DNA of 31,736 bases from Octopus sinensis. Its lineage: Eukaryota. A program made the translations under genes and the position numbers. The notes beneath the pieces are model-generated. The model was given only the letters and a program-made list of their open reading frames with translations. It did no database searches and had not been told where the DNA came from. Below are positions 2,608-31,736 of the stretch, one piece after another. Each line of letters opens with the position of its first letter. Position 1 is the stretch's first letter. The stretch lies in the NCBI RefSeq assembly GCF_006345805.1, contig NW_021829637.1, positions 1 through 31,736 of the forward strand, given 5' to 3'.

Positions 2608-3620
2608 TCAAAATAAACTTTTAAACATTTTGATCAATTTAGAAAGCGAATATTTAACAGATTTGTATGGACCAGCCGTCACCAATCCCTTGACTGTCTG
2701 CGAAAGACTGGCCCGGGAGACAATAGCCTTTATAGAGCTCACAATCATCTGACGTGAAGGCTGATGAGCCAAAGTCAACAAAACTTCCTCCATGTCGGGA
2801 TACTTCTGGTCGACATTCATTCTGTGCCACAACTCCAACTGCAGATTTTTAGGCAAATGATTCAAATGATGAAGTCTGGAGGAATATACATGCTGTTGCT
2901 CGAAAATCCCCTCTTTTTGATGCCAGCACAAATGTCCTTCAAATCCATTTATAAGTGGACCGTAAAGATCTCGAAAATTCTGAATATGCCCACGAAAAAT
3001 GTTTTTTATTTTATTTTTATCTTCTCCAAACTAAATAATAAATAAATAATTAAATTACAATTAATCTAAAATCGCCACTATAAGACAACCAAATAATCAT
3101 GCTAAACAAATCCTCTTCAGTAAACGACTCAGGAAGGAGTAGAAGCGCAGTATGCAAAGCAGAAGAAAGATTACTGTGCAAAGCAGTCTTTAAATCCTCA
3201 GGAAAAACATCCTTCAAAGCCCAAACAGGCTTTTGTAGTCTACTCCTGTTACAGACCACGTGACCTTCCACTGGCATAAAGGCAATCCCAGTCATACAAG
3301 TCGGAGATCAGGTCCTCGGATGTGATGACTCCATATTTGTAGTATAATCCTTCGTGGGGGATCAGAGTATTGTAGAACATCTTTGAGCCATGTTTACGTT
3401 GGAGATTGGCTAGTTTGGAGGGGCCTGCGAGACTGCAGAGGGAATAATGTTTAGGATTTGTTCTGAGGTTGGAGGTGTGGAAGAGGACTGCGTCTTGTAC
3501 TACGACTATGAGGTCAATCATTTTGGATTGCTGAGGAAGTATCCCAGATCCGTAGGCGAATGCCATTGTTATTGGATCAGGGAGAGTAGATAGGAAACCA
3601 CGACACTTCTCAAGTGTCAT
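2608..3620 (-). CDS. TAMM41: Mitochondrial phosphatidate cytidylyltransferase Tam41 (3 exons)
   Basis: Motifs AFAYGSG, MIDLIVVV, NPKHYS, YYKYGVI, DLYDWDCLYASGRLQKPV, LSYSGDFR, FGEDKNKIKNI, QTVKGLVTAG. Removing introns 3240-3264 (25 nt) and 3031-3058 (28 nt) joins three ORF fragments into one frame ending TGA at 2608-2610. Confidence 0.95.
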
Positions 3621-4208
3621 GTGTAAAATCTATTAAATTTAAATTATTATTTTTTTCAACTTTTTTTATTATTATTAATAATTTATACAATTAAAAAAAA
3701 TCTAGCTATTAGGTACCAGATTCTAACCTTAACGTACAAGTCATGTCTTCTACCTTTTTGTGTTTTGGATATGAAATTTGTAGACATTTAGAAACTCTTG
3801 CAATAATCCTCGTAACTAGCTTGAATGAATCCAAACGAAGGAAAAAGTAAAGAACTCAATAGAACAAGTAACCAGGAAGAAAAATCCAAAAAAGAGTGCA
3901 TTCACAGTTTCCTAGAAATCTTAGCAAAACAAATGTGAAAATGGCACAAAACAATCAAGGAATGTCTCATTTTTATAAAACATGTCGATTTGATTATTCC
4001 GCAAATAATGTTGAGAACCCACGGTAAATATACGTGGGATATGGCTCAGGATCCTCTGTTGGCTAATCAGCAAAACACGTTTTGAGAGAATGTCTCATCT
4101 GGAAAAACAGATAGACTAAAAGCATGAGTTTAAATAATAATTATAATCTAAGTAAAAGTTTAATTTTAAACTACTGTTTTTTGAATTGATTATAATTGTG
4201 GTTGTGTT

Positions 4209-5009
4209 ATGGAAGTTGCTTCAGACATTCCGACATTTCATTTCAACGGACTAGAAAATACCGAACGCCCTCCAATCGCGGAAATTAATAAAATCTTCAA
4301 AACCAAAATCCTACATGGAACAACCACCATGGCTTTCAAATACAAAGACGGCGTGATAGTGGCTACTGATTCCCGGGCAACTGCTGGAGCAACAATCGGT
4401 ATTTTCTGGTTATAACTCTCAGGGTCCCAAACGGTGAAAAAAGTAATTCCGGTGACTCCCAACGTTATTGCCACTATGGCCGGAGGGGCTGCCGACTGTC
4501 AATTCTGGCTAAGAATAATGACTTCTAAGGCTCAGTAAGTTAAAAATCTCAACCCAATCAATCATAGAGCATACAGAATCCGACATAACAGAGAAATGTC
4601 AGTTGCGGCGATTTCATTAATGCTGGCCAACTCTTTGTACCAATATAAGGGGTATGGACTCAGCATGGTAGTTTTGGGCATGGAGACTGAGTAGGGGTCG
4701 ACGATTGTGGGGTATGATAAGACTGGATTCCATATTTACATGGTGGAGGACAGTGGACTGAGATTGGAGGTCGATATGGGCGGATATGGCTCAGGATCTC
4801 CGTATGCTTATTCTGTGATGGACAATAAGTACAAGAGGACGGATCTCCCCTTTGAGGATGCTGTCCAATTGGCGAAGGAGGCTATTTCGAATGCCACCAA
4901 ATTCGATACGATGAGTGGAGGACATGCCAATATTTATTGTGTCACCAAAGATGGCTATCGACAACTTTGCTTTACTGATGTCGATGACTTATATGCCCAG
5001 GGGTTCTAA
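4209..5009 (+). CDS. PSMB5: Proteasome subunit beta type-5 (chymotrypsin-like), 4 exons
   Basis: 37-aa propeptide, then [64 protein letters not shown]. Catalytic Thr1, Asp17, Lys33 and S1-pocket Met45 are present. Introns 4399-4422 (24 nt), 4535-4567 (33 nt), 4668-4694 (27 nt). Confidence 0.95.
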
Positions 5010-7710: not shown

Positions 7711-8010
7711 TGGTCTACTAAAGTTTATATTTTAGTATTTAAATAAAAAAATTATAAGTTTGAACGCAATTGTCAGATAAATTTGGACGTAAAAATATTT
7801 CGATTTTTTAATTAAAAATTGATTATTACAATTATCCGATCATTATAAATTTAAATATGTGGAGATTGAAAATAAGAAAATAAAACTTTTAATCGATAAA
7901 GCTGAATTAATTTATAATGAAAAAAATAAAATATACTTACTCAATGATAATAATTTAAATATAAATAAACAGTAGTCAAAGTGGTTTGATCGTGATAAAT
8001 TTAATCTAAA
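7711..8010. promoter_or_regulatory. Probable bidirectional promoter region between divergent NT5C2 and KDM6A
   Basis: Only 300 bp of very AT-rich DNA separates the two head-to-head start codons (7710 minus, 8011 plus). No specific element identified. Confidence 0.35.
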
Positions 8011-11000
8011 ATGAATTATTCTGGAATTAAAAACGTCTCAAGCTTCACAGAACAGCCAAACCTGCTAAACGAATTTGACAGGTATTATATTTAAATATAT
8101 CAGCACTTTCTACGGAATAAAGATAAGCCAGGAACTTTTACTCCGGCTAGATCGAGTATACTCTTTCTCTCTTTTACATCAAGACTGTCAATATTTTGGA
8201 AGAACAGCTTCGTATATCAGAAATAAATGGAGCCGAAATAGCCCTCAAACTCGGCCATTTAAACCTTATTCTTAAAAGCTATCGGAAATGTAACTTTTTG
8301 ATAATATTCTAAGCACTTTCTGCATATCAGTTATATTTCAAACTGAACAAAGATTCCTGGAGAAATGAAAATTTTCTCTTTGGAATAGGAATTTGCTACT
8401 ACCGTTTCGGATCAATAGAAAAGTAAGTCAACATTCATTCATATTTTAAGTGCCCTCAAAGTACTTCTTCAACTGCTGTTCGAATGCCCTCTTTTTTGTC
8501 GCTTAGTGGATGTTTATTTTATTCTGGCTCTTATATACCGCGTAAAACGGAATTATTCGAGATATTTATACGTTTTTTACTGATTGTGAGTATATTTAGT
8601 TCCTCAAACTAACTCTTCATCAATGCAAGCCTTACAGCCTCCAGTACTACGAAGGTAGGCAGTATTTTTATATTGAAATAGTCAAGCTATTCATGGTTCA
8701 AGGCTACGTTCACAAAGTTGTTAGAAACAAATGTTTTGTAGGGAAAAATCAATTTGGCTGGAAAATTTTTACAAGAAATTTTGGAATCGAGTTGTCCTCA
8801 GAAGGTCAAGTCTCAGGCGATGCTTCAAACTGGTATTTGAGTGGCATGTCAGAATAGCCTGGATGCTCTTCACTGGGATAGACATGTCGGGAATTGCCAG
8901 GAAGGATGAGGTCGAGGACTACCTCCGTCTGGCTATCATGTCTGACCCCTCCAACATCACTGCCTGGTACTTCTTCGGGCGGTAGGCGTAAGTGGACTAT
9001 TCAGTAGATATAACTCAGAAGTAGGCAATATTGGGCTGGCCTTGGATATTTATCTTAGCACAGTGGATAACATTTGGGGTACTTCCAAGATGTGGTGTTC
9101 TGTCGGGTTGTCTACTTTATCAGCATTTCAGACTTCTCTATCACGGACAAAACCAGCACAGCGACGCCTTGCAAGCATATGTGTGTGCATTGAAATTAAA
9201 TCATTGCGATGCTGGCACGTGGATAAATATGGCCATTCTGTATGAGCAGAACATGCAGATTAACGACGCCGTCGAGTGCTATCGCCATGCACTCAAGTAT
9301 TCTAGTGAGTGCTTGTTTTCTCATTTGAAGCACAAAAGCAACAAATTCGTAGCAAAATATACTCCCTGGCCAGCCATAACGTAGTTCCACGGCAAAACAA
9401 GTCGTTTTGTTTCAATTTTTAGGCTTCTCTCAATCCGTGAGGTTGTAAACGACGTTTTTTTCAAATCGGTAATTCATAAGAAAGTTGTTCTTTGATTGTT
9501 CCAATTTAGTTGAGGAATGACGGCGGTGAGTACACCAAATTGCTGTTTAAAAAGACTTCAACTGTCTATTGCGTTGATCTGTCGTTTAATCGTGGTAGGA
9601 GAATTTATCTGAGTTGTCCAGTCGGCTTTACAGTTTCGGACTTAGTCAAGAAAATATTGACAATCTAAAAAAAATGGAGGGAGTGCCTTTAAATTCGCTT
9701 GTCGTTTTTTTGGTAATTTTTTAGTCAGATACGTTTCTCCGTGGATATGCCTTGATCTGTCGGTCTGACGAGTTGGTTTGCCCTTCAACGCGGTTTTTTG
9801 ATGCTGAGGAAGTATTGTTGTTATATCAGTAATACAAGCTATCACACAAGTCTTGTTCTCATTACGGAATCGACTCGAGTGATTTAAAAATGCTTCCAAC
9901 GGGTATTTTTGTGGCTAATTTGTTGAGGTCGGATGTATTTCAGAGAAGTCTCCTTTTAATAACTCGTCCATCAAGTCTTTGGGAATTCCGTTGCAAAGAC
10001 GTACCAAAATAATTAATGTGATTTATATTCTTTATTTTTAGTTTGATTCCAAGTTGGAGTCAGCCTGGATTGAGCTCAGAAATATTTGTTATCGAAATGA
10101 CTGCGCTGTGATTAAAAATTTATGTTTGCATACAAAATTTGGTAGATTTATTGAAATATCCAGATTGTTCTGCATTTTCTTCATCTTTGTTACAAAAGTT
10201 GATTGCACAGAGAGAAACATTAGTAAAAATCCACGTTTATTCCAAATTTACAACTGTTGGTAGGCCTATCATGGGACTCCAGAAGAGAACGGGGATTTTA
10301 GTGGGGAGAATGGATGGAGAATGACACAAAAACATATCAAATCAGACGTGTTTCGTTCTGCAGCTTATCAATTTCGTAGTTTCAAAGATGCGTCAAAAGT
10401 TTGTGAAATATGCGTCATTCTAAGGCCGAATCGTGCGGATTGGAAATATCGGATTCTTTTCAGGACAAGGAAATCCACATATCCAACGTTGAGCTTTTTG
10501 CTGAAGGAGAATCCAGTAATTTATGGTCCCAACAAAAGCATGAACTTGACAAATTTCCGTCATTTTTGAGGGTCTTTTAGCTTTAAATGATTTTAGATAA
10601 ATTCGAAATTAAATATGCTCACGTATATTAATTATTGGCCTGCTCACGCTGGGCCTTGTTTAAATATGCTTGTGCCGGGTTCTCGGCTTACTGGTTTGTT
10701 TACTTTTTTATTCCCAGCTCGCCGAACTTTAGGGGGGTTAGTGTCCGTTTATCTCAATACGGGACCTGGGAATGTCGAGTGGTTTTGTATTCCGAGCGAA
10801 TTTTCATCCGAATTTAATTCTGCCTGCGAATTGTTGTAAATTATGTACTAAGAATTAGTTATGGGATGAGCTGTTTTGACTCCAATTCTTCGATATGGCC
10901 AAATCTGGATTCGTTGGGCGAATTGAATATTCCATATCATCGATTTATTCAAAAAAGTGGGGATTTAATCTGGCTGAATTCTGGCTGCATTTATTACTTC

Positions 11001-11627
11001 CAATCTCATGTGGATTTTGCGTGTTTGATAAAATAGGGCTGGGCGAACACGGTCTCTTGGTGTTTGGCACCAATGACGCGCCAGCACTTGCAATCGATCG
11101 TAGCGTGTTATGAATTTGACAGATATAACTATTATAAGCAGACTGTCCCAGCTGTACATTTGTGTTGGACACTGAGACTGTCACTGCGATTTGTCGATGA
11201 ACAGTTTTTTAGTATTGTCAAGTATTTTTTTCCATATATTCGAGAAATGTGTTGTGGAATTCTCTAATGAAGTGCCAAAGAATTTCCGAATATGTGATTT
11301 CCGCTGGGTATCAGTCCAGGATGAAGAGAATGAGTGATCACTGTTTTAAAGACGATAATTTTAGAGTCTATTTTTGCATTGTTTGCCGGGTTGTGGGTTT
11401 TACTTTGACTTGGATAGTGTGAAATATTCAATTTTATATTCGCGCCTGTAGATTCGAGTGATATTTCTGTCAATCACTCATCAATGAGTGACAAGATTAC
11501 TGTGAGTGTAATGTGTTATCGTTGTGTTCTTCAACGGTACTCCAATTTAGATAATGTGATTATAATTATGGATCGAGAAATGAGCGAATTAACGAATATT
11601 CATGATTCATTCCAACGTGTTGTTTAA
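8011..11627 (+). CDS. KDM6A: KDM6A/UTX-family protein (TPR repeats + JmjC + C4 zinc-binding domain), predicted catalytically inactive
   Basis: Spliced translation follows UTX: LGHLNLILKSYRKSLSAYQLY..DSWRNENFLFGIG, DPSNITAWYFFGR, WCSVGLLYHGQNQHSDALQAYVCALKLNHCDAGTWINMAILYE, WSQQKHELDKFPSFLR, VPGSR, NTGPGNVEWF, YRFIQKSGDLIWLNSG, CIVC...CYRC; stop TAA 11625-11627. More than 20 introns, mostly 22-30 nt (e.g. 8082-8103, 10142-10163, 10694-10717, 11010-11036). Confidence 0.93.
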
Positions 11628-11813
11628 TTATTTATTTTTGCATAAAAATGTCTTTTTTGATATTTTTTGACTTATTAAATGAGTTTAATTTTACTCAAAT
11701 CTTACTATGCATATAAAGAAAATCTATCTTTTCAGGTAAGCCAAATGAGAGCTCGATAAGTTGTAGAGTTCTTTACGTCGCCGACTGTAAATCTAGCGAT
11801 GCTAGTTCAACTG

Positions 11814-17238: not shown

Positions 17239-18045
17239 CTAAGGCCTGTGGATAAACGATGTTTGCAGTCCGTCCATCCTTGGCAAATATAAATAAATTT
17301 CTCTTCTACCTACCCTTGAGCACCCCACATACAGCTGGCCATGTGAAAAGCACTCGTTCTCTAAAAATAAGCCTACTACCTTTAAAGACTGTCCCTGGGC
17401 CTTGTTTATTGTCATAGCAAAACTTATCTTCAGCGGAAATTGTAGTCTCTTAAATCTATCGCAGGCCCTTTCATGGTCCATAATAACGTCGACCGATTTA
17501 TATATTCTTTCTCTGCCAGGGATTTTCATTAATAAATCTAAATTTATATTAAGTACCTCATCATTAAGTGGAGCTAATATAGCTCGTTCACGCAGCCAGT
17601 CGAAATTCACGTAGTGTTCAGATAGTTCGGAATAGACGGCATTCAATAATTCTTCTGCTGTTTCTACGAAAATACATATTCTTCCGGTAGCCTAATTTCT
17701 GGTCGTGCATTTCTGAAGTGATTGCCCCATTTCCAATATCTAGAAGGATTTGTGGGAATATGCTATTAACGCCTTGTAAATGTGCATGTACATTTACATA
17801 AGCTTACCTTTTTCACGTGTGTCCACAAATATGACGATTTGAGGCAGGCATTCAATTCATCCGCAGGCGTCCCTCTTTGAATAATTGGCAGCGTCTGTCT
17901 AAAATCACCTGCCAATACAACTAATGCTCCCCCAAACAAATGGTCGCTACAATTCTTGATATCTCTATATGTTCGGTCAACTGCTTGAATGCGCCTTTAT
18001 GAGCCATCGTACATTCATCCCAAACAATTAACCTAGAATGCATAA
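17239..18045 (-). pseudogene. Helitron Pif1-family helicase C-terminal remnant
   Basis: [90 protein letters not shown]; frameshifts and an internal deletion. Confidence 0.93.
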
Positions 18046-23307: not shown

Positions 23308-26120
23308 ATGGAGTCTTGTGAGTTCACGTGCAAAATAATCGAAAGTATAAAGAATTTTAAAGTATTAAATTCATTTAATAAAAGAACGAAATTGAAGATA
23401 ATATCAAATACGAGAACTTGAAGTCTGCAATAAGAAATCATCTTAGCCGGCCTTTAAAGAACATTATCAAATCAGTAGACACACTCTCATCTCAAGAAAA
23501 TGCTCACAACATTTTTTTCGACATTATCCGCCTGGATATTGGCAATGTTTCAGAGAATTCTATTCTTCTTCGTGCTTATTTCGTCATAGTTCTCCAGTTT
23601 GACTGGCTAGATTACTTCATCAAAGTAATTTACTCAAAAAACTCTTAGAAAAGTGGTTCGTTGAGCCCCGCTGAGCAAATTCCACTTTACGCGAATCTTA
23701 TTTCTGTCTTAAACGAAAGTGAACCTGGAAATTCGCTGTTTCCGGCAAAATTTCAGCAAATTTTTATTTTCATATTTTCCGATGAAAACAGCTTTGTTTT
23801 TAAAAAACCGGAAACTGATTATTTCACTTTGATTGAGGCCGCAATGACCACATTGATGGATAGATTTACTCCCAAATTCGTGCTCAAAATATACCTGAAC
23901 TACTCTCTGCTTGTTAATCAACAGGAATTAAAATTTTTCGATATTTTTACCCGCAATGTTGGCATTTTAGTCAAAAATGGACGGGTTGGTCTTGATTTTG
24001 TACTTTCTCTAATCCTCGATATGTTTTTAAAAGTCGATTCCTCTTCTTTTGCTCAGTTTCTGGTCCTTCGCAGTGTTCCTGTCAATTTCTCCTTTTATAA
24101 GTGCATTGAGCCTTTGATAAAATTCTTTGATTTGTCAACCAGTGACCTCATAAACCAGCTTCCGTGGGAACCAAGACAAGTTTTATTGTCCGTCAAGTCG
24201 GTTGTTGGGCTGTGTGGAGGATCTGTACCAACCTGTGGAGATATTTTATGTTGGCTACTCGAATTTATTCCCGGAAAGACCTCAAAGAATGAAGTTATGA
24301 GGGAAATGTATCTCTCGTCTGATCATTGCTTAGTTTTGATGCCATTCATTCAGCATTCAATCAGAATTTCCGAATATTTGAGGATATTTCGACCTGGCTG
24401 CTCCTCACCGACTTGATGAGACTATTTAAGGACCAGGGCGGACATCGAGTTAAATTTGCGGATTAATTTTAGTTATTACGGGATCTTTTTAAAAAACAGT
24501 CCCGCAAATTCCGGTCCTCACTCCCTCCCTTGGAATGTCCGTTGGATATCGAGACTTTGTGTGAGAAGGGACTATCGATTTGTAGTGATTGGTCATTGGA
24601 GTGGTCATTTTTTGCTTCTTATTACAAAACTGCGGTCAGACTGGTTCAAGAATTTATTAAAGCTAAACCAGAACACGTCAATTTGACTAGAATTTGCAGA
24701 GAATTTACCAAAAGGACTGATTTGCTGAGAATTTTGGGAGAAAATGTAACAGTCTTCTGTTCAGACGAGTCCCTGTTAACAAGTCGACTCGAGTTTTTGA
24801 TTTCTGTTTTGTAATTTTTGATATTTTTAGAAAAATTGTCTCGTCGATGGATTTTTGACAGTTTTTATGATTTGGTTGTCGCCCCTGTGATTGATGCATG
24901 TTCCCTCAACAGTCCCAAGTCGGCAATTTATTCCACTCTTACTGTTGCAGAGGTAGACTACTCAAATGACTATTTTAGACTTTTTGTGTCAGCTGTGATA
25001 AGAATACGACTGGAATTGTCAAGTTTATACTTTATTTGTTGGATTTCACTCATTTTTTGTTTAAAAACTCAGAGAGTGGTGAGATGGTGCCCAATCCTTC
25101 CCACTTTATGTACGTCAAAAGTAGGGTTTTGGGGTCTTTGGTGTGCATTTCTAAGGTGGAGACAGTCCGCGAAGCTGTTTCAAGTTGATTGCAAATAAAT
25201 CGAATTTAGACGTGTTAAATGACATTCATTCCCCCACACTTTTGACTCATTTCTACGTAAAACAAATATTTGGAATATCGTCACACAAACTGACAACCCA
25301 GTTGACTATGTTTGCTAATATTTAGTGAGTTGTCTGGACAGGATTGCCTGGGTGTGGCCGATCTGGTAAACCTTGCTCGCTCTGGCTGTTTACAAGCACA
25401 CGTTAAGGTGGATTACTGTCATTTGCTGTTGGCTGTTTCGTCAGTTAATGACTTTTGGGGTTGATTTTGATAGATTGTGCCGCATTGCACGTCTCGGGAG
25501 TTTAGATCAGTTGTCGAATTCTGTTCTTCTCTCATCTGTCCAGACACCTGTTGTGAAAACCATTTGGCATGTATTATTCAATATTCTGACCCACTAATAG
25601 CTGCAGCCACGTTTTCGTCAGTTTCGACATTCTTGTGTCATTTGATGTCTGTGCTGTTGCCCAATTTGTCTGATTTTGGCGACTATCGACGACAGCTTAC
25701 GGGATATTATTTAAGCTTCGTTCGAGTTAGTTTATGTGCTGATTGGACAGAAGAAATTGTTGGTGGATGCTCAGTGTTTTGTCAATGAGACGATTCGAGG
25801 ACTAGTGCTGGACGAATTGAAGCATCAGCTTACTAATCTTGTTGCGTTGCTGATGGACAGGGACTGTGATGAATTCTCTATGATCAACTCGGTTATTTTT
25901 TCGTTGACTCAATGAGTTTTTGAATGTGTGGTTTTTTGAGGGGTTTAAAATATGCGACTGAGTTAAAATTTTTTGTTAATTTGAGTAGCTATGGACTTTT
26001 TTATAACACTGATTTTCACTGAATGATTTAATTATGTAATAATTTTGCTCAGCTGAGTATCCTCGTGACATGCCAGCTCCGCAAGTTGATCTTCGTTATC
26101 AACCTGGATTATTGAATTAA
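23308..26120 (+). CDS. Long multi-exon gene for a divergent, probably alpha-helical protein; weak resemblance to TELO2/Tel2
   Basis: ATG at 23308 and successive plus-strand ORFs joinable by micro-introns. Segments GILVKNGRV, LVLRSVP..CIEPLI, SKNEVMREIFDAIHSAFN and KTAVRLVQEFIKAKPE..SRLEFLISVL are collinear with my recollection of TELO2. The gene is likely real; its identity and 3' end (25915-26120) are uncertain. Confidence 0.55.
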
Positions 26121-26204
26121 TTTATTATAATGAAGGTATGTTTTTAATTAAAATACTATTAATTAAAACACGATAATAGTCTCAGTTTTTAAAATACACT
26201 CACA

Positions 26205-28978
26205 ATGTGGCACCGAAACATGGTTTGTTTAAATCAGAAAAATTATTATTTGTAGAAGCTAGTGAAATTTTTTCCAGATAAATTAAAAAATTTTATACGA
26301 AATGTTAGCCATCAAATAGAGTATGGGAACAGGTTTTTAATAAAAATTACCTCAAGCATTCTAACAGTGGAAACCGATAAAATAGGACGACAGGCTGCCG
26401 GGTCAGTCTTGGTTCAAGTAAATTATTTTTGAATTATTTTGAGTGCAAAAATTGCACAATGATAAGTTCAATCGTCGCTGTCAATCAAGCAGCCGCCGTC
26501 GGACCATCTTTGAATGTTTTTTGTACATTTAAATATTTTTTGGTCGATTTCAAATCACGAAATAAACAGGAAGGGCAAATCAACAATAAAAGGAAACCAA
26601 ATGTCAATATTGAGACCCAAGTTCTGACAAGCAGACTGATCGGTTTTTGTATTTTTATCACATTAGACCGATCAATCAGACCGATTTTGGACCCTCGGAT
26701 GGACTTTGCTCTCAACGTTAGTATTTTGTTTTGTAATTCCAAAGATGCACGTTAAATCTCTTTCTACTGACCATACATTTGATTCCGAGGTTTTGGGCAT
26801 CAATGCGGGTTATTAAAATTTGGTTTTCTTTTTTAGGATCTCTGAGTCTGGTTTCTTCCCATTTGCCCATTAACCGAACAGTCGCAGCGATTCGGTTGGC
26901 TTTGATGCCGAATGGGTCAATAATTTTGTTTCCCTCAAAACAAGAGCTTTTAGAATGTTCAGGAAACATTGTCATGGTCGTGGACTCGAATGGAAAGATA
27001 AGTAATTGGAATTACCTCAATGAGTAGTCATGTTGGAGGGGGCCATGGATAACCAACCAACTTCCGTGGTGATGCGAGCCATTTCCACGGCCTGGGAAAA
27101 CTGTGTGCTTCTTGCAGGACGTTTTTTGAGAATTCAGAAGGAAGTGATACATTTTGATGATACAAATTCTGAAATCAACGTTCGAGAAATTTCAGGGTTT
27201 GGTCAATTTGATATAAGTAGATGTCTTAAAGACTATTTTTTGGAATTTCTAAATCTTCCGCCTTCCGATAAGGTAATTTTGTGTGCCACCTGTAGAAAAG
27301 TGGAGTTGAAGCACTCTCATTGCTCAAATCAAAGTTCACAGAAAAGGCCATTGGTTTGTAAATATACGTCTTTAGCCAAGAACTGAACATTCCTTCTGAC
27401 TCTCATAACAACATATTTAACAATCTACTGACTACTCATTTCCGTGATCACATTCTTCGGTCTGAAGTGAGGACTGACGGAAGGACCTTTTCTCAAATTA
27501 GAGACGTCTCTTGTGAGGTAGATATAGCACCAGGAATACACGGTTCTGCCATTTTCCGACGGGGGGAGACACAAGTATTAGAAAAGATTGTTCATAGTAG
27601 GTTTTGAGTTGTGTCGAGTTGTTATCCCCATATTCCACGTCACGGAGACATCCATTTTCCGCGATTACCGGGTTGGTGTTACCTGCTAATCGTGTCTCAG
27701 TGCCTGTGTCGATAAGCAATTCGAACTGATCTATGAAGTATATATTTTTTATATTTGGCTTAGTTTCCGCCTTATTCGACAAACGAGGTTAGACAGAGTG
27801 GAAACTTGAATCGAAGGGAGATGGGTCATGGTAAGAGTACTGTATGACATGTCAGGGGCACTGGCGGAGAGAGCTCTCCTTCCGACCATTCCAAAGGCGG
27901 GAAATCGGTTTTTTAGTGTATCTTGTGACGTCACGGATTCCCATGGTGTGAAAATTCGTGATTTATTCAGGCTCATCTTCAATGGCTTCCGTATGTGCTG
28001 GATCGTTGGCGTTGATGGACGCGGGAGTTCAAATCACGGAATTGGTGGCTGGGATTGCCATGGGGGTTGTGAGTACGTCATGTGGGAGACGGTGGAAGGT
28101 CATCACCGACATCACTGTTGATCAAAAATGCTATTTTTAAGGGAATGGAAGACTCCCTTGGAAACATGGATTTTAAAGTAGCTGGAAGTGTCCGTGGATT
28201 CAATTCTATGCAGGTTAGTGTTTGTGACCATTGGGTAGTTGGATGTCAAGGGAGATGGAATATGCTTAGATATACTAGCAGACTCGCTGGAGAAAGGGCA
28301 TGGTTTGTTATTGCAGTTATAATCTTTTTAGAGGCAATTTGTCGTTTGGTAAATCAAATGAAAACAGCAATTGATAAGCCACGGGAATCAGTAAAGGAGT
28401 GCTGGCCTGTCAGCAGAGTATTGGAAGTGACCTCAAGTCAGCGAGCCCGCATCATTGGATCGGGGGGACAGGGACTCAGACGACATTTCAGTCAGTCTGG
28501 TTAGGCATATTTAATTATTTTTAGGTGTACTTGTTGAACCTCTTGACGAGAATTGTCTTTTTTTATTTGCTCCTTCTGTTGAGGCCTTGGAATATGCTCG
28601 AGAGGCACTGAATGAGACGATCCTTCAAAACGTATTCTAAACGATATATCATTTTCTAGAAAGAAGTAGATTTAAAATTGTATCAAGTCTATGATGCCAC
28701 AATAGTTGAAATGACGTTTGTTTTTTGAGTTATTCGTAGTGATAATGGTGTTTGGGTGAGAGTCTACAAAACAATGCAGCCAATTTTTCTTCACTGTAAT
28801 CACCTTTCTCTCGACAATGTATTTATTTTGTTATATTTTTGAGACTAAGAAACCAGCTGATCTCGGATTTTATGAAGGGTTGAATATTCGAGTACAATAT
28901 TTTGGGATTGATTCGATGACGGGCAATCATCGTTTGTCTCGGAAATTGGCTCTGACAAAAGAAATGGAAATTAATTGA
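26205..28978 (+). CDS. PNPT1: Mitochondrial polyribonucleotide nucleotidyltransferase (PNPase): two RNase PH domains, KH and S1
   Basis: [95 protein letters not shown] (both metal-binding Asp kept), [24 protein letters not shown]; TGA 28976-28978. About 20 micro-introns. Confidence 0.95.
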
Positions 28979-29329: not shown

Positions 29330-29705
29330 TTATTAACACACTTATTGTAGGGCTATAATAATTATAGTCCCACCTGTGCAACACCCAAAACAATGTTAGT
29401 AACGAGTCTCCTCCATTTTCCTCGGTTAAGCGCTGTGAGCCGCAGCCTGTCCAAGTCATCATCGGTCTTGAGACAGGATTTGATTTGGGCGAGGTCCGCT
29501 TTCAGAAAGACAGGTAACGTAGTGCGTAGACCTTCCCGGAACCGTGGTTTGTCGCATTGGAAGTAATCCTCCATCACCGTATTTGCGGGTGCGGACTGGT
29601 CCATTTGCAGTATGTGTCCAAATAGCTTCCAGCGGGATTCAGCAACGTCAATGCAAAGTGGCCTTGTAGAACACTTTATATATAACGACTCCCGGGATAT
29701 TCTAT
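29330..29705 (-). mobile_element. 3' terminal fragment of an RTE-like LINE
   Basis: ISRESLYIKCSTRPLCIDVAESRWKLFGHILQMDQSAPANTVMEDYF..RTTLPVFLKADL..DLDRLRLTALNRGKWRRLV, stop at 29362-29364, then a short TAA-rich tail. Confidence 0.8.
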
Positions 29706-29734
29706 AAAGACACTCGGGGTAGCTCTATTGCACA

Positions 29735-31736
29735 ATGTCTGGAAAACGCCTTAATTCACTGTTGGGACTATCTATCGTCACTTTTAATGTCAGGGGAATC
29801 TCCAATACATATAAAAGAAAACAATTGTGCAAAGATTTTGAGAGATACAATGTATCAATCGGATGTATACAAGAAACGAAGGTCTTGGAAGGGGCTGATG
29901 AATCATATGGAAACTACCGTCTAATACTACTTCCCAGCATATCGAAGCACTATGGGCAGGGATTCATTGTCCATAAGACTTTAGCCCCTGGAATTCATCG
30001 TGTATGATGTGTAAATGATATAATCTGTGTTTTGCAAATAAAGACATGTGACAAAGGAAAATCGAGGGGAATTATCTCCATTATTAATGTCTATGTCCCA
30101 CATTCTAGGATTGTTGTGAAAGACCCAGAAGTTTTAATCATATTCTACTCTGAGCTATCCAAAGTCTATACCGAACTTGAATCCTCTTTTATAATATTCA
30201 TTACGGGTGATTTCAATGCCAAAGTTGGCGTTCAAAAAGGATTACAATTCATGGGAAGACATGGATGCGGTATAAGAAACTTATCTGGGTGCTTCCTCGC
30301 GAATTTTCTGTTTGTTATGTGACTTATTTATATGTAATACTGCTTTTCAGCACCCTGCACGTCACAAAACGACATGATGAATCAATCTATATATACAATC
30401 AAATTGATTATATTCTCTGTCGGATGAATGACAAAAGCTTTCTGCTTGACTCACGCTCTTATGGAGGATCAACTGTCGACAGTGATCACAAAATCGTTAT
30501 GGCTATGATTAGCATTAAAATCCATCTCGTGTTCTTAAAAAAGACTATACCCAAAAATTCTAGAGAAGCCGGATATATGATCGGAAAGCTAACCTTTAAT
30601 CTACTTATTCAAGAAGCTTATAAACAACACATTGAATGTCTATTGAAAAACCTGGACATGCCTCAGTCAAATCAAGACATTTGGAATAGCGGATAACCAT
30701 ATCGAAAAAAAGATTTAAACTAGAGGAAAATTTATGAAAGCCTGCCATCCTAAAGTTCCAATGATATCCTTAAGGCAAAAAAATGTCAGGCTTAAATTAT
30801 AAAATACTATTGACGCGAATAAAAAACAGATTTTAAAAACAGATTGTAATTTTTTGAAATGGCAAATAAAGAAACTAAAAAACGAGCACATAAGAAATCT
30901 AATGAGGACTAATATAAATGAAATCGAAAACTTAAAAGATGGTGCACAAATGTTTGCAGGAGCTCGTCTGCTAAAAAATAAGGAACAAAAAACTCACCTA
31001 AGGATACATGACTTTGAGGAAAGAATTATACTTTACCCTCAGTAACAAACAAAAGTCATCGAAAACCACTTTGAGAAGCAATTTAACACATTAAATGGAT
31101 CTCTGGATGCTTTTGTCGGACCCTAAAGAGAATTAGTAATTCCGATTACGTCTGAAGAAGTGCAATCAGCAATTTTAAAATTGAGGAACAATCGATCTTC
31201 GAGACCCGATAACATTAACCCCGAACTACTGAAATACGGGCCATATATACTATTTGAAATTATTGCTAAATTGCTGAACGATATGTTCACATCGAATTCT
31301 TCTCTACCTGTGGGGAAAGGCATTCTAATCCCAATTCAAAAGCCACATAAGCCGAAAGGCCCTTTGGAGAACCTACGGCCGGTCATTCTTTTAGACTCTC
31401 TTCAAAAAGTGCTTGCACTGATCATCCTGAAGCGAATAAAAGAGCCTGTCAACGAATACCTCTCTGCCAGTCATAGTGGGTTCAGACAAGGGAGATCCAC
31501 AGCGGATATTGTATGGAGCCATCGATGGAGATGCACTATATCTCAAAGATTCAAATGTGCAACCACGCTTTTGGGAATTGACATGTCCAGGGTCTTTGAC
31601 ACAATAATCAGGGCAAAGCTGATTGAGGTGTTATAACGCTTTTTGGATGAAAGCTCGGTTAGAGTAATTAGATTGCTTTTTGCCAACACTGAACTTGAAT
31701 TAAGAATATACTTGGAGTCTGCATTACGAGATCTAA
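29735..31736 (+). mobile_element. RTE-like LINE ORF (APE endonuclease + RT N-terminal half), degenerate, runs off the window
   Basis: TFNVRG, GCIQETK, INVYVPHS, GDFNAKVG, NQIDYILC, DSDHKIV (APE); IPIQKPHKPKGPLENLRPVILL, SGFRQGRSTAD, GIDMSRVFDTI (RT). Several stops and frameshifts. Confidence 0.92.

Follow-up and report, generated by a model that had tools for sequence, protein, structure and literature searches.

A UTX/KDM6A orthologue predicted to be catalytically dead, encoded on an Octopus sinensis assembly contig that appears to derive from a dicyemid-like cobiont

The contig NW_021829637.1 of the Octopus sinensis assembly GCF_006345805.1, analysed over its whole length of 31,736 nucleotides (nt) and referred to below as the window, is an entire small contig (G000:C6108) within a 2.7-Gb assembly with chromosome-sized contigs. 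A gene on its forward strand (8011..11627) is, as judged from its domain architecture and exon-intron structure, an orthologue of the histone demethylase UTX/KDM6A, the JmjC domain of which has kept no ligand of iron or 2-oxoglutarate, and the encoded enzyme is almost certainly dead. Its surroundings indicated that the contig is not DNA of the host but that of a second, tiny-intron animal (a parasite) sequenced together with the mollusc. In the interpretation that we moderately favour, the dead UTX of this cobiont survives as a tetratricopeptide repeat (TPR) scaffold of KMT2C/D-COMPASS, while K27 methylation would be removed passively.

Results

Loss of the active-site residues

In the alignment with homologues (human numbering), Y1135 was replaced by Asn (10663), K1137 by Leu (10669) and T1143 by Leu (10687), all within 10663..10689, the H1146-Q-E1148 motif by R-R-T (10720..10728), N1156 by Tyr (10750..10752), and, as also indicated by the PDB match, the distal His1226 by Tyr (10992..10994). 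The original prediction, made from these letters alone, had reported the loss of the iron-binding triad, and direct reading of the codons bore this out with CGC (Arg) at 10720-10722, ACT (Thr) at 10726-10728 and TAT (Tyr) at 10992-10994, all repeated on a second contig, C9499. The reported replacement of the 2-oxoglutarate-binding Lys, Thr and Asn by Leu, Leu and Tyr was likewise reproduced, and the Asn at Y1135 was found in addition. All seven lost positions were invariant in the aligned homologues (115/115), a set that excludes five two-domain proteins and is biased to mites and fish. Where an active demethylase carries the His-x-Glu...His triad and Y1135/K1137/T1143/N1156, the window protein thus reads R-x-T...Y and N/L/L/Y. 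Furthermore, the invariant G-M-N-T-V stretch preceding Y1135 was replaced, and the substrate-binding Glu near E999, a position placed by offset to within one residue, was Leu or Lys. S1154 (10744), W1166, the core tryptophans and the four Zn cysteines were retained.

The roles of these residues were taken from PMC6052472, PMC9111933 and PMC3459986. H1146A, Y1135C and T1143I are each reported to abolish UTX activity in cells singly (PMC3459986), and Y1135 is described as contacting the methyl groups of K27 (PMC3459986). With seven cofactor positions lost from an intact exon structure, the gene matched the earlier description of an intact pseudo-demethylase.

Alternative splicing and sequencing error

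The proposed 24-nt phase-1 intron (10694..10717) corresponded to the single 8-residue gap in the PDB alignment and lay at the position of an intron in the UTX gene of the host (contig C1), which also interrupts the Gly of T-P-G-H-Q-E in phase 1. The Arg and Thr positions were unchanged whether the intron was spliced or not. Rescue by other splicing, which the original prediction had named as a possible refutation, was rejected: intron retention and nine in-frame GT/GC-AG alternatives yielded H-x-D/E in 0/10 cases. Sequencing error was also excluded, since the substitutions recurred on C9499, the contig of the second haplotype, which was 99.4% identical over 4.4 kb and identical in its active-site residues. 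The two contigs were further distinguished by mobile-element insertions just after 11985.

Gene model and orthology

Spliced alignment to full-length UTX proteins (P0115 and P0056) yielded the exons of the TPR region and those of the C-terminal half, and the model was then completed by hand. From the ATG at 8011 to the TAA at 11625-11627, the frame was open over 28 exons encoding 970 amino acids (aa), and each of the 27 introns is of the GT-AG type, with a length between 22 and 41 nt (median 26 nt). No RNA record was listed over 8000-11700 of the window, a result that counts neither for nor against expression. On the forward strand, the TPR region (aa ~42-345; 8184..9304; Pfam TPR_1, E 3.9e-10; 35% identity to the TPR exons of the host) is followed by a short linker (aa ~346-519; 9331..10017), whose introns (9305-10041) have no homology anchor, so that its exon limits are tentative; each of the four linker exons with single-nucleotide polymorphisms (SNPs) between the haplotypes had a single stop-free frame, which was the modelled one. 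Next come a pre-JmjC region (10042..10571), in which the T-N-x-D-L strand was retained as S-N-V-E-L, the JmjC core (10597..11009; PDB matches and PF02373), the KDM6 C-terminal helical domain KDM6_C-hel (11037..11221; PF21322, E 4.5e-9) and a Zn site, CxxC (11375, 11384)...CxxC (11514, 11523), spanning 11375..11525 and split by the intron 11390-11417.

The Pfam matches to JmjC (27.7 bits), KDM6_C-hel (36.2 bits) and TPR were all above the cut-off. The match to KDM6_GATAL (PF21326) was weak (E 0.045), yet the Zn cysteines aligned 4/4, and the earlier statement that the spliced frame, the TPRs and the CxxC..CxxC site are kept was in good agreement with these results. A phmmer search of PDB with the unspliced frame gave UTY/UTX as the best matches, along with JMJD3, and the exon downstream of the JmjC intron matched UTY (E 1.7e-10). 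In addition, 17 of the 27 introns could be compared with those of the host UTX by eye, and all 17 were common in position and phase. The gene thus combines a TPR array, a KDM6-type JmjC and helical domain, a four-Cys Zn site and the exon-intron structure of KDM6A/UTX.

Origin of the contig

A separate UTX gene, with long introns and an intact triad, belongs to the host and lies on C1; it grouped with that of the clam Mya arenaria in the tree (0.99). Repeats of the window were common to the small contigs C8703 (97% over 739 bp), C9073 (92-98%) and C1794; none was shared with 187 kb of host DNA, and the host microsatellites were absent from the window. The CpG ratio was 0.91 in the window and 0.80-1.00 in 11 other small contigs, as against 0.21-0.46 in six host samples, which suggests that the cobiont has little or no DNA methylation. 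Since the repeats, CpG ratio and introns differ from those of the host and the host carries its own UTX, a host gene was excluded, and the gene must not be taken as one of the host assembly.

The uniform introns of ~26 nt (median 26), the GC content of 35.8% and the mollusc host are dicyemid-type features. Dicyemid introns have been reported with a mean of 26.2 nt (PMC2222250) and a median of 27 nt (PMC6543705), and dicyemid GC content as 36.7% (PMC6736024); the only animals named with such introns are dicyemids and myxobolid myxozoans (PMC13644364). As indirect evidence, these properties make it quite probable that the second animal is a dicyemid. A dicyemid orthologue was not found: word searches gave one match with the JmjC exon and none with the TPR exon, and a HMMER search of cluster representatives gave 59% over 41 aa at best.

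Chromatin genes of the cobiont

Of the genes that the original prediction proposed to search for, E(z) (EZH2), SUZ12 and KMT2C/D were found in the same organism. A small contig carried a full-length E(z), the SET domain of which gave EZH2 as its best PDB match (E 5e-24) and was 73% identical to that of the host; SUZ12, with its Zn finger and VEFS box, was on C8703, and a KMT2C/D that comprises PHD, FYR-type and SET regions was on C9073. The latter gene (L061/L062, C9073:71.9-77.4 kb) is very compact, at ~5.5 kb of genomic sequence. Other SET genes on small contigs are, by their motifs, presumably SETD1, NSD, SUV39, SETDB1 and SETD8; several HP1-like genes were present as well.

A divergent set of H3 genes was confined to small contigs (loci L134-L142, on C8311, C8744, C9082, C9339, C7512, C12468, C12441 and C10743). 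K27 was retained in 8/8 H3.1-/H3.3-like genes read, while the ninth locus was a cenH3-like gene. The cobiont H3 was altered between positions 21 and 24 (21, 22, 24) and at 29-32; around K27 it reads S-A-R-K-S-V-S-Q-F, with P30 lost and R26L in two copies, and in the H3.3-like genes K36 is preceded by Leu and followed by Arg.

KDM5 of the cobiont kept its His-x-Asp/Glu...His motif, as did three metal-motif proteins that we take to be cupin hydroxylases, so a general loss of iron/2-oxoglutarate chemistry was excluded. When a further KDM6 was sought with the helical domain, a JmjC core and the host exons for the TPRs and for H-Q-E, nothing beyond the host gene and the two dead copies came up, the H-Q-E query recovering even the dead exon. 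KDM2/KDM7 searches matched host contigs only, KDM5 was the sole gene of its kind that the JmjN and JmjC searches showed on small contigs, and KDM4, KDM3, KDM2/7 and JARID2 were found on host contigs only or were not recognised. Because the UTX gene of the window itself escaped the Pfam JmjC search, no claim of absence rests on that search alone. Domain searches recognised no Polycomb-type chromodomain or RAWUL domain on cobiont contigs. As for an intact-triad KDM6/KDM7, the original check thus gave none in the cobiont, the intact UTX being that of the host.

Small contigs also yielded eIF6 and two S8e-family genes, and many single-copy chromatin and housekeeping genes were present in the cobiont, often on two contigs. 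The completeness of the cobiont assembly therefore appeared fair, although the absence of an active KDM6 may reflect incompleteness. Taken together, these searches make it likely that the dead copy is the only KDM6 of the organism.

Divergence and selection

The JmjC core was 37% identical to that of the host, compared with 88% between zebrafish and host; its distance to the host was 8-fold that of zebrafish, whereas the TPR, helical and Zn parts were at 2.3-3.4-fold. Catalytic domains of the same organism were closer to those of the host, at 68% for KDM5, 73% for E(z), 67% for SETD1 and 52% for KMT2C/D. From these distances and the residues retained, enzyme-type constraint is lost in the JmjC domain while fold residues persist. 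Although the JmjC core carries approximately one substitution per site, the frame is free of stops and frameshifts, and the splice sites of all 27 introns are unbroken.

Between the two haplotypes (C6108 and C9499), 4/4 indel events were intronic (P 0.0014), including both of those in the C-terminal half, and 7/11 coding differences were synonymous (P 0.0025-0.013, depending on transition weighting). The synonymous differences all lay in the N-terminal (TPR) half (7/7). The confinement of indels to introns and the synonymous excess support the earlier description of the gene as maintained, and the gene is probably not dead.

Other KDM6 proteins without ligands

In a set of 150 KDM6 representatives, 9/144 aligned stretches carried a replacement of the distal His and 8/42 one of the H-x-E motif, and these parallel losses included His to Arg at 1146 and His to Tyr at 1226. 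Ligand-less KDM6 domains were found in P0202, P0170 and the first domain of Tigriopus P0003, in P0218, in P0236, P0303 and P0208 of Rodentolepis/Hymenolepis, and in the second domains of the ant proteins P0002 and P0005. They are no close relatives of the window protein; the four tested were 34-36% identical over the JmjC-helical part, like any UTX. The copepod-like and ant dead domains sit beside an intact domain.

A copepod-like degenerate clade (P0202, P0170, P0235, the first domain of P0003, P0199 and P0161, several with TPRs) was sister to an active clade (the second domain of P0003, P0259 and P0249), and it is possible, from this branching, that UTX has been split there into a scaffold and an enzyme. 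The KDM6 proteins of Rodentolepis nana/Hymenolepis weldensis (P0236, P0303, P0208) had Phe at the distal His and, where covered, Asn at Y1135, so hymenolepidid tapeworm KDM6 may be inactive. P0218, a TPR-bearing KDM6 of 708 aa, showed His to Lys, Glu to Thr and His to Tyr; in the tree it branched with the protein of the window (0.91), although by identity (35%) it was no closer than others, a pairing that we read as long-branch attraction, and an Atlas search with P0218 gave generic UTX clusters only.

Neighbouring reading frames

Further open reading frames of the window lie at 2608-3629 (-), 4695-5009 (+), 23649-28504 (+), 29362-31636, 920-1258 and 17239-17691. These neighbours of the UTX gene are presumably TAMM41, a proteasome beta subunit, a large gene of unknown kind, PNPase-like pieces, and long interspersed element (LINE) and helitron-like fragments.

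Discussion

A dead UTX proposed to be retained as a scaffold

A UTX with such a JmjC domain would carry out no demethylation. In the mechanism that we propose, the protein is probably expressed, its TPR region would quite plausibly bind KMT2C/D (MLL3/4)-COMPASS as a scaffold, and its C-terminal half would be kept as a structural module. H3K27 methylation would likely still be written by PRC2, and the mark would be removed by replication dilution or histone turnover, any active K27 demethylase being presumably absent. A COMPASS scaffold is favoured because KMT2C/D is retained and the synonymous changes are concentrated in the TPR half. The original prediction had spoken of a scaffold or reader; the scaffold stands as the best reading, while a reader appeared unlikely with the methyl-lysine pocket and the Glu near E999 changed. 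Through its N-terminal TPR part, mammalian UTX is reported to bind MLL4, which stabilises UTX (PMC7608747), mouse embryos without KDM6 activity still lose H3K27me3 and survive to term (PMC4125042), and UTX can support enhancers without catalysis (PMC13570294).

Several observations weigh against this interpretation. In Drosophila, with a single Utx, catalysis is reported to be essential (PMC5788527), and for this reason the outcome proposed here is not a trivial one. PTIP, a subunit of the UTX module, was not found in the cobiont, where the sole BRCT match was TOPBP1, although PTIP of the host was found. The TPRs, too, are strongly diverged (35% to host). When two uncertain SNPs were counted as non-synonymous, the selection signal fell to P 0.024-0.079, and the non-synonymous differences all lay in the C-terminal half (4/4) together with no synonymous one, a distribution that on so few sites is compatible with neutral drift (P 0.28-0.39). 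Furthermore, among copepod-like proteins an active paralogue is sister to the dead UTX with TPRs. Finally, two pattern searches for cobiont 18S ribosomal DNA gave 18/18 primer matches of host type, so that the cobiont assembly is incomplete at least as regards the 18S.

The last two points bear on a division of labour, an unlikely alternative in which the copy in the window serves as TPR scaffold, while an active, perhaps TPR-less KDM6 is missing from the assembly, as the 18S is. The copepod-like pattern, with dead TPR-bearing proteins (P0003a, P0202, P0170) sister to active ones (P0003b, P0259, P0249), would be a precedent, but the KDM6 searches with four queries yielded nothing else, and many single-copy genes were present, often on two contigs. 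The suggestion that active H3K27 demethylation was dropped is consistent with the searches, which found no other KDM6/KDM7, but not proven.

A release from selection, of the whole gene or just of its JmjC half, with a frame still intact owing to the recency of the decay, is rather improbable. The four non-synonymous and zero synonymous haplotype differences of the C-terminal half would fit such a decay; however, the JmjC core has taken up about one substitution per site while frame and splice sites stayed unbroken and no stop arose. In addition, the protein retains the four Zn cysteines and its core tryptophans, both indels of that half are intronic, and the gene, as the only KDM6 found, is not a spare copy.

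Still less probable is that the dead JmjC-Zn module reads the H3 tail, K27-methylated or not, and thereby places COMPASS. In its favour, the protein retains its Zn site, S1154, W1166 and the N-x-D/E pair, and H3 retains L20, R26 and K27. On the other hand, Asn stands in place of Y1135, which contacts the methyl groups of K27 (PMC3459986), the G-M-N-T-V stretch is replaced, the Glu near E999 is lost, and the H3 of the organism is altered at 21, 22, 24 and 29-32.

That the lineage has dropped H3K27 methylation entirely, making an eraser redundant, as the original prediction allowed, is very improbable because E(z) (full-length, with a SET domain that shows 73% identity to that of the host and matches EZH2 best), SUZ12 with Zn finger and VEFS box, and K27 in 8/8 H3 genes are retained, even though the H3 sequence following K27 is altered and the cobiont contigs showed neither a recognisable Polycomb-type chromodomain nor a RAWUL domain.

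The scaffold interpretation extends, more tentatively and with rather less than even confidence, to the dicyemids as a group: PRC2 would write H3K27 methylation in these animals and no enzyme would erase it, their sole KDM6 being a stripped pseudo-enzyme kept for COMPASS, with KDM7, KDM2, KDM3, KDM4 and JARID2 gone and canonical PRC1 maybe gone as well.

Implications

A standing question, with relevance to Kabuki syndrome and KDM6A-mutated cancers, is whether the importance of UTX lies in its catalysis or in its scaffolding; data from mouse and worm favour the latter, those from the fly the former. If our interpretation holds, an animal with a UTX gene, PRC2 and KMT2C/D but without the active site and without an active paralogue would reveal which function of UTX evolution cannot drop, the conserved surfaces of the dead protein would map the scaffold role, and the animal would be a whole-organism natural counterpart of the catalytic-dead UTX experiment. 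The copepod-like, ant and tapeworm parallels suggest that the KDM6 active site has been lost repeatedly. No description of the present case was found in a literature search that covered few subscription papers.

Comparison with known systems

The window protein shares the TPR-linker-JmjC-helical-Zn layout of human/mouse UTX (KDM6A; PDB 3AVR), from which it differs in the loss of the three iron ligands and of Y1135, K1137, T1143 and N1156 and in a much shorter linker (970 aa in total). Schistosoma mansoni, a parasitic spiralian, likewise has a single UTX (Smp_034000), but one reported to keep the His/Glu/His triad (PMC7077139). In Caenorhabditis elegans, an engineered catalytically dead UTX-1 is reported to rescue development within the SET-16 complex (PMC3342935), although the wild-type UTX-1 of the worm is active and three JMJD3-like paralogues accompany it. 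The natural counterpart in the mouse is UTY (KDM6C), a homologue described as having no detectable demethylase activity but a developmental role that is kept (PMC3459986). UTY retains H1146 and E1148, has lost Y1135 and T1143, and coexists with active UTX and JMJD3, whereas the window protein has lost the entire site, and searches of the cobiont contigs revealed no active paralogue. A pseudo-enzyme KDM6 is therefore not unique; what distinguishes the present one is the completeness of its loss, combined with the apparent lack of an active partner.

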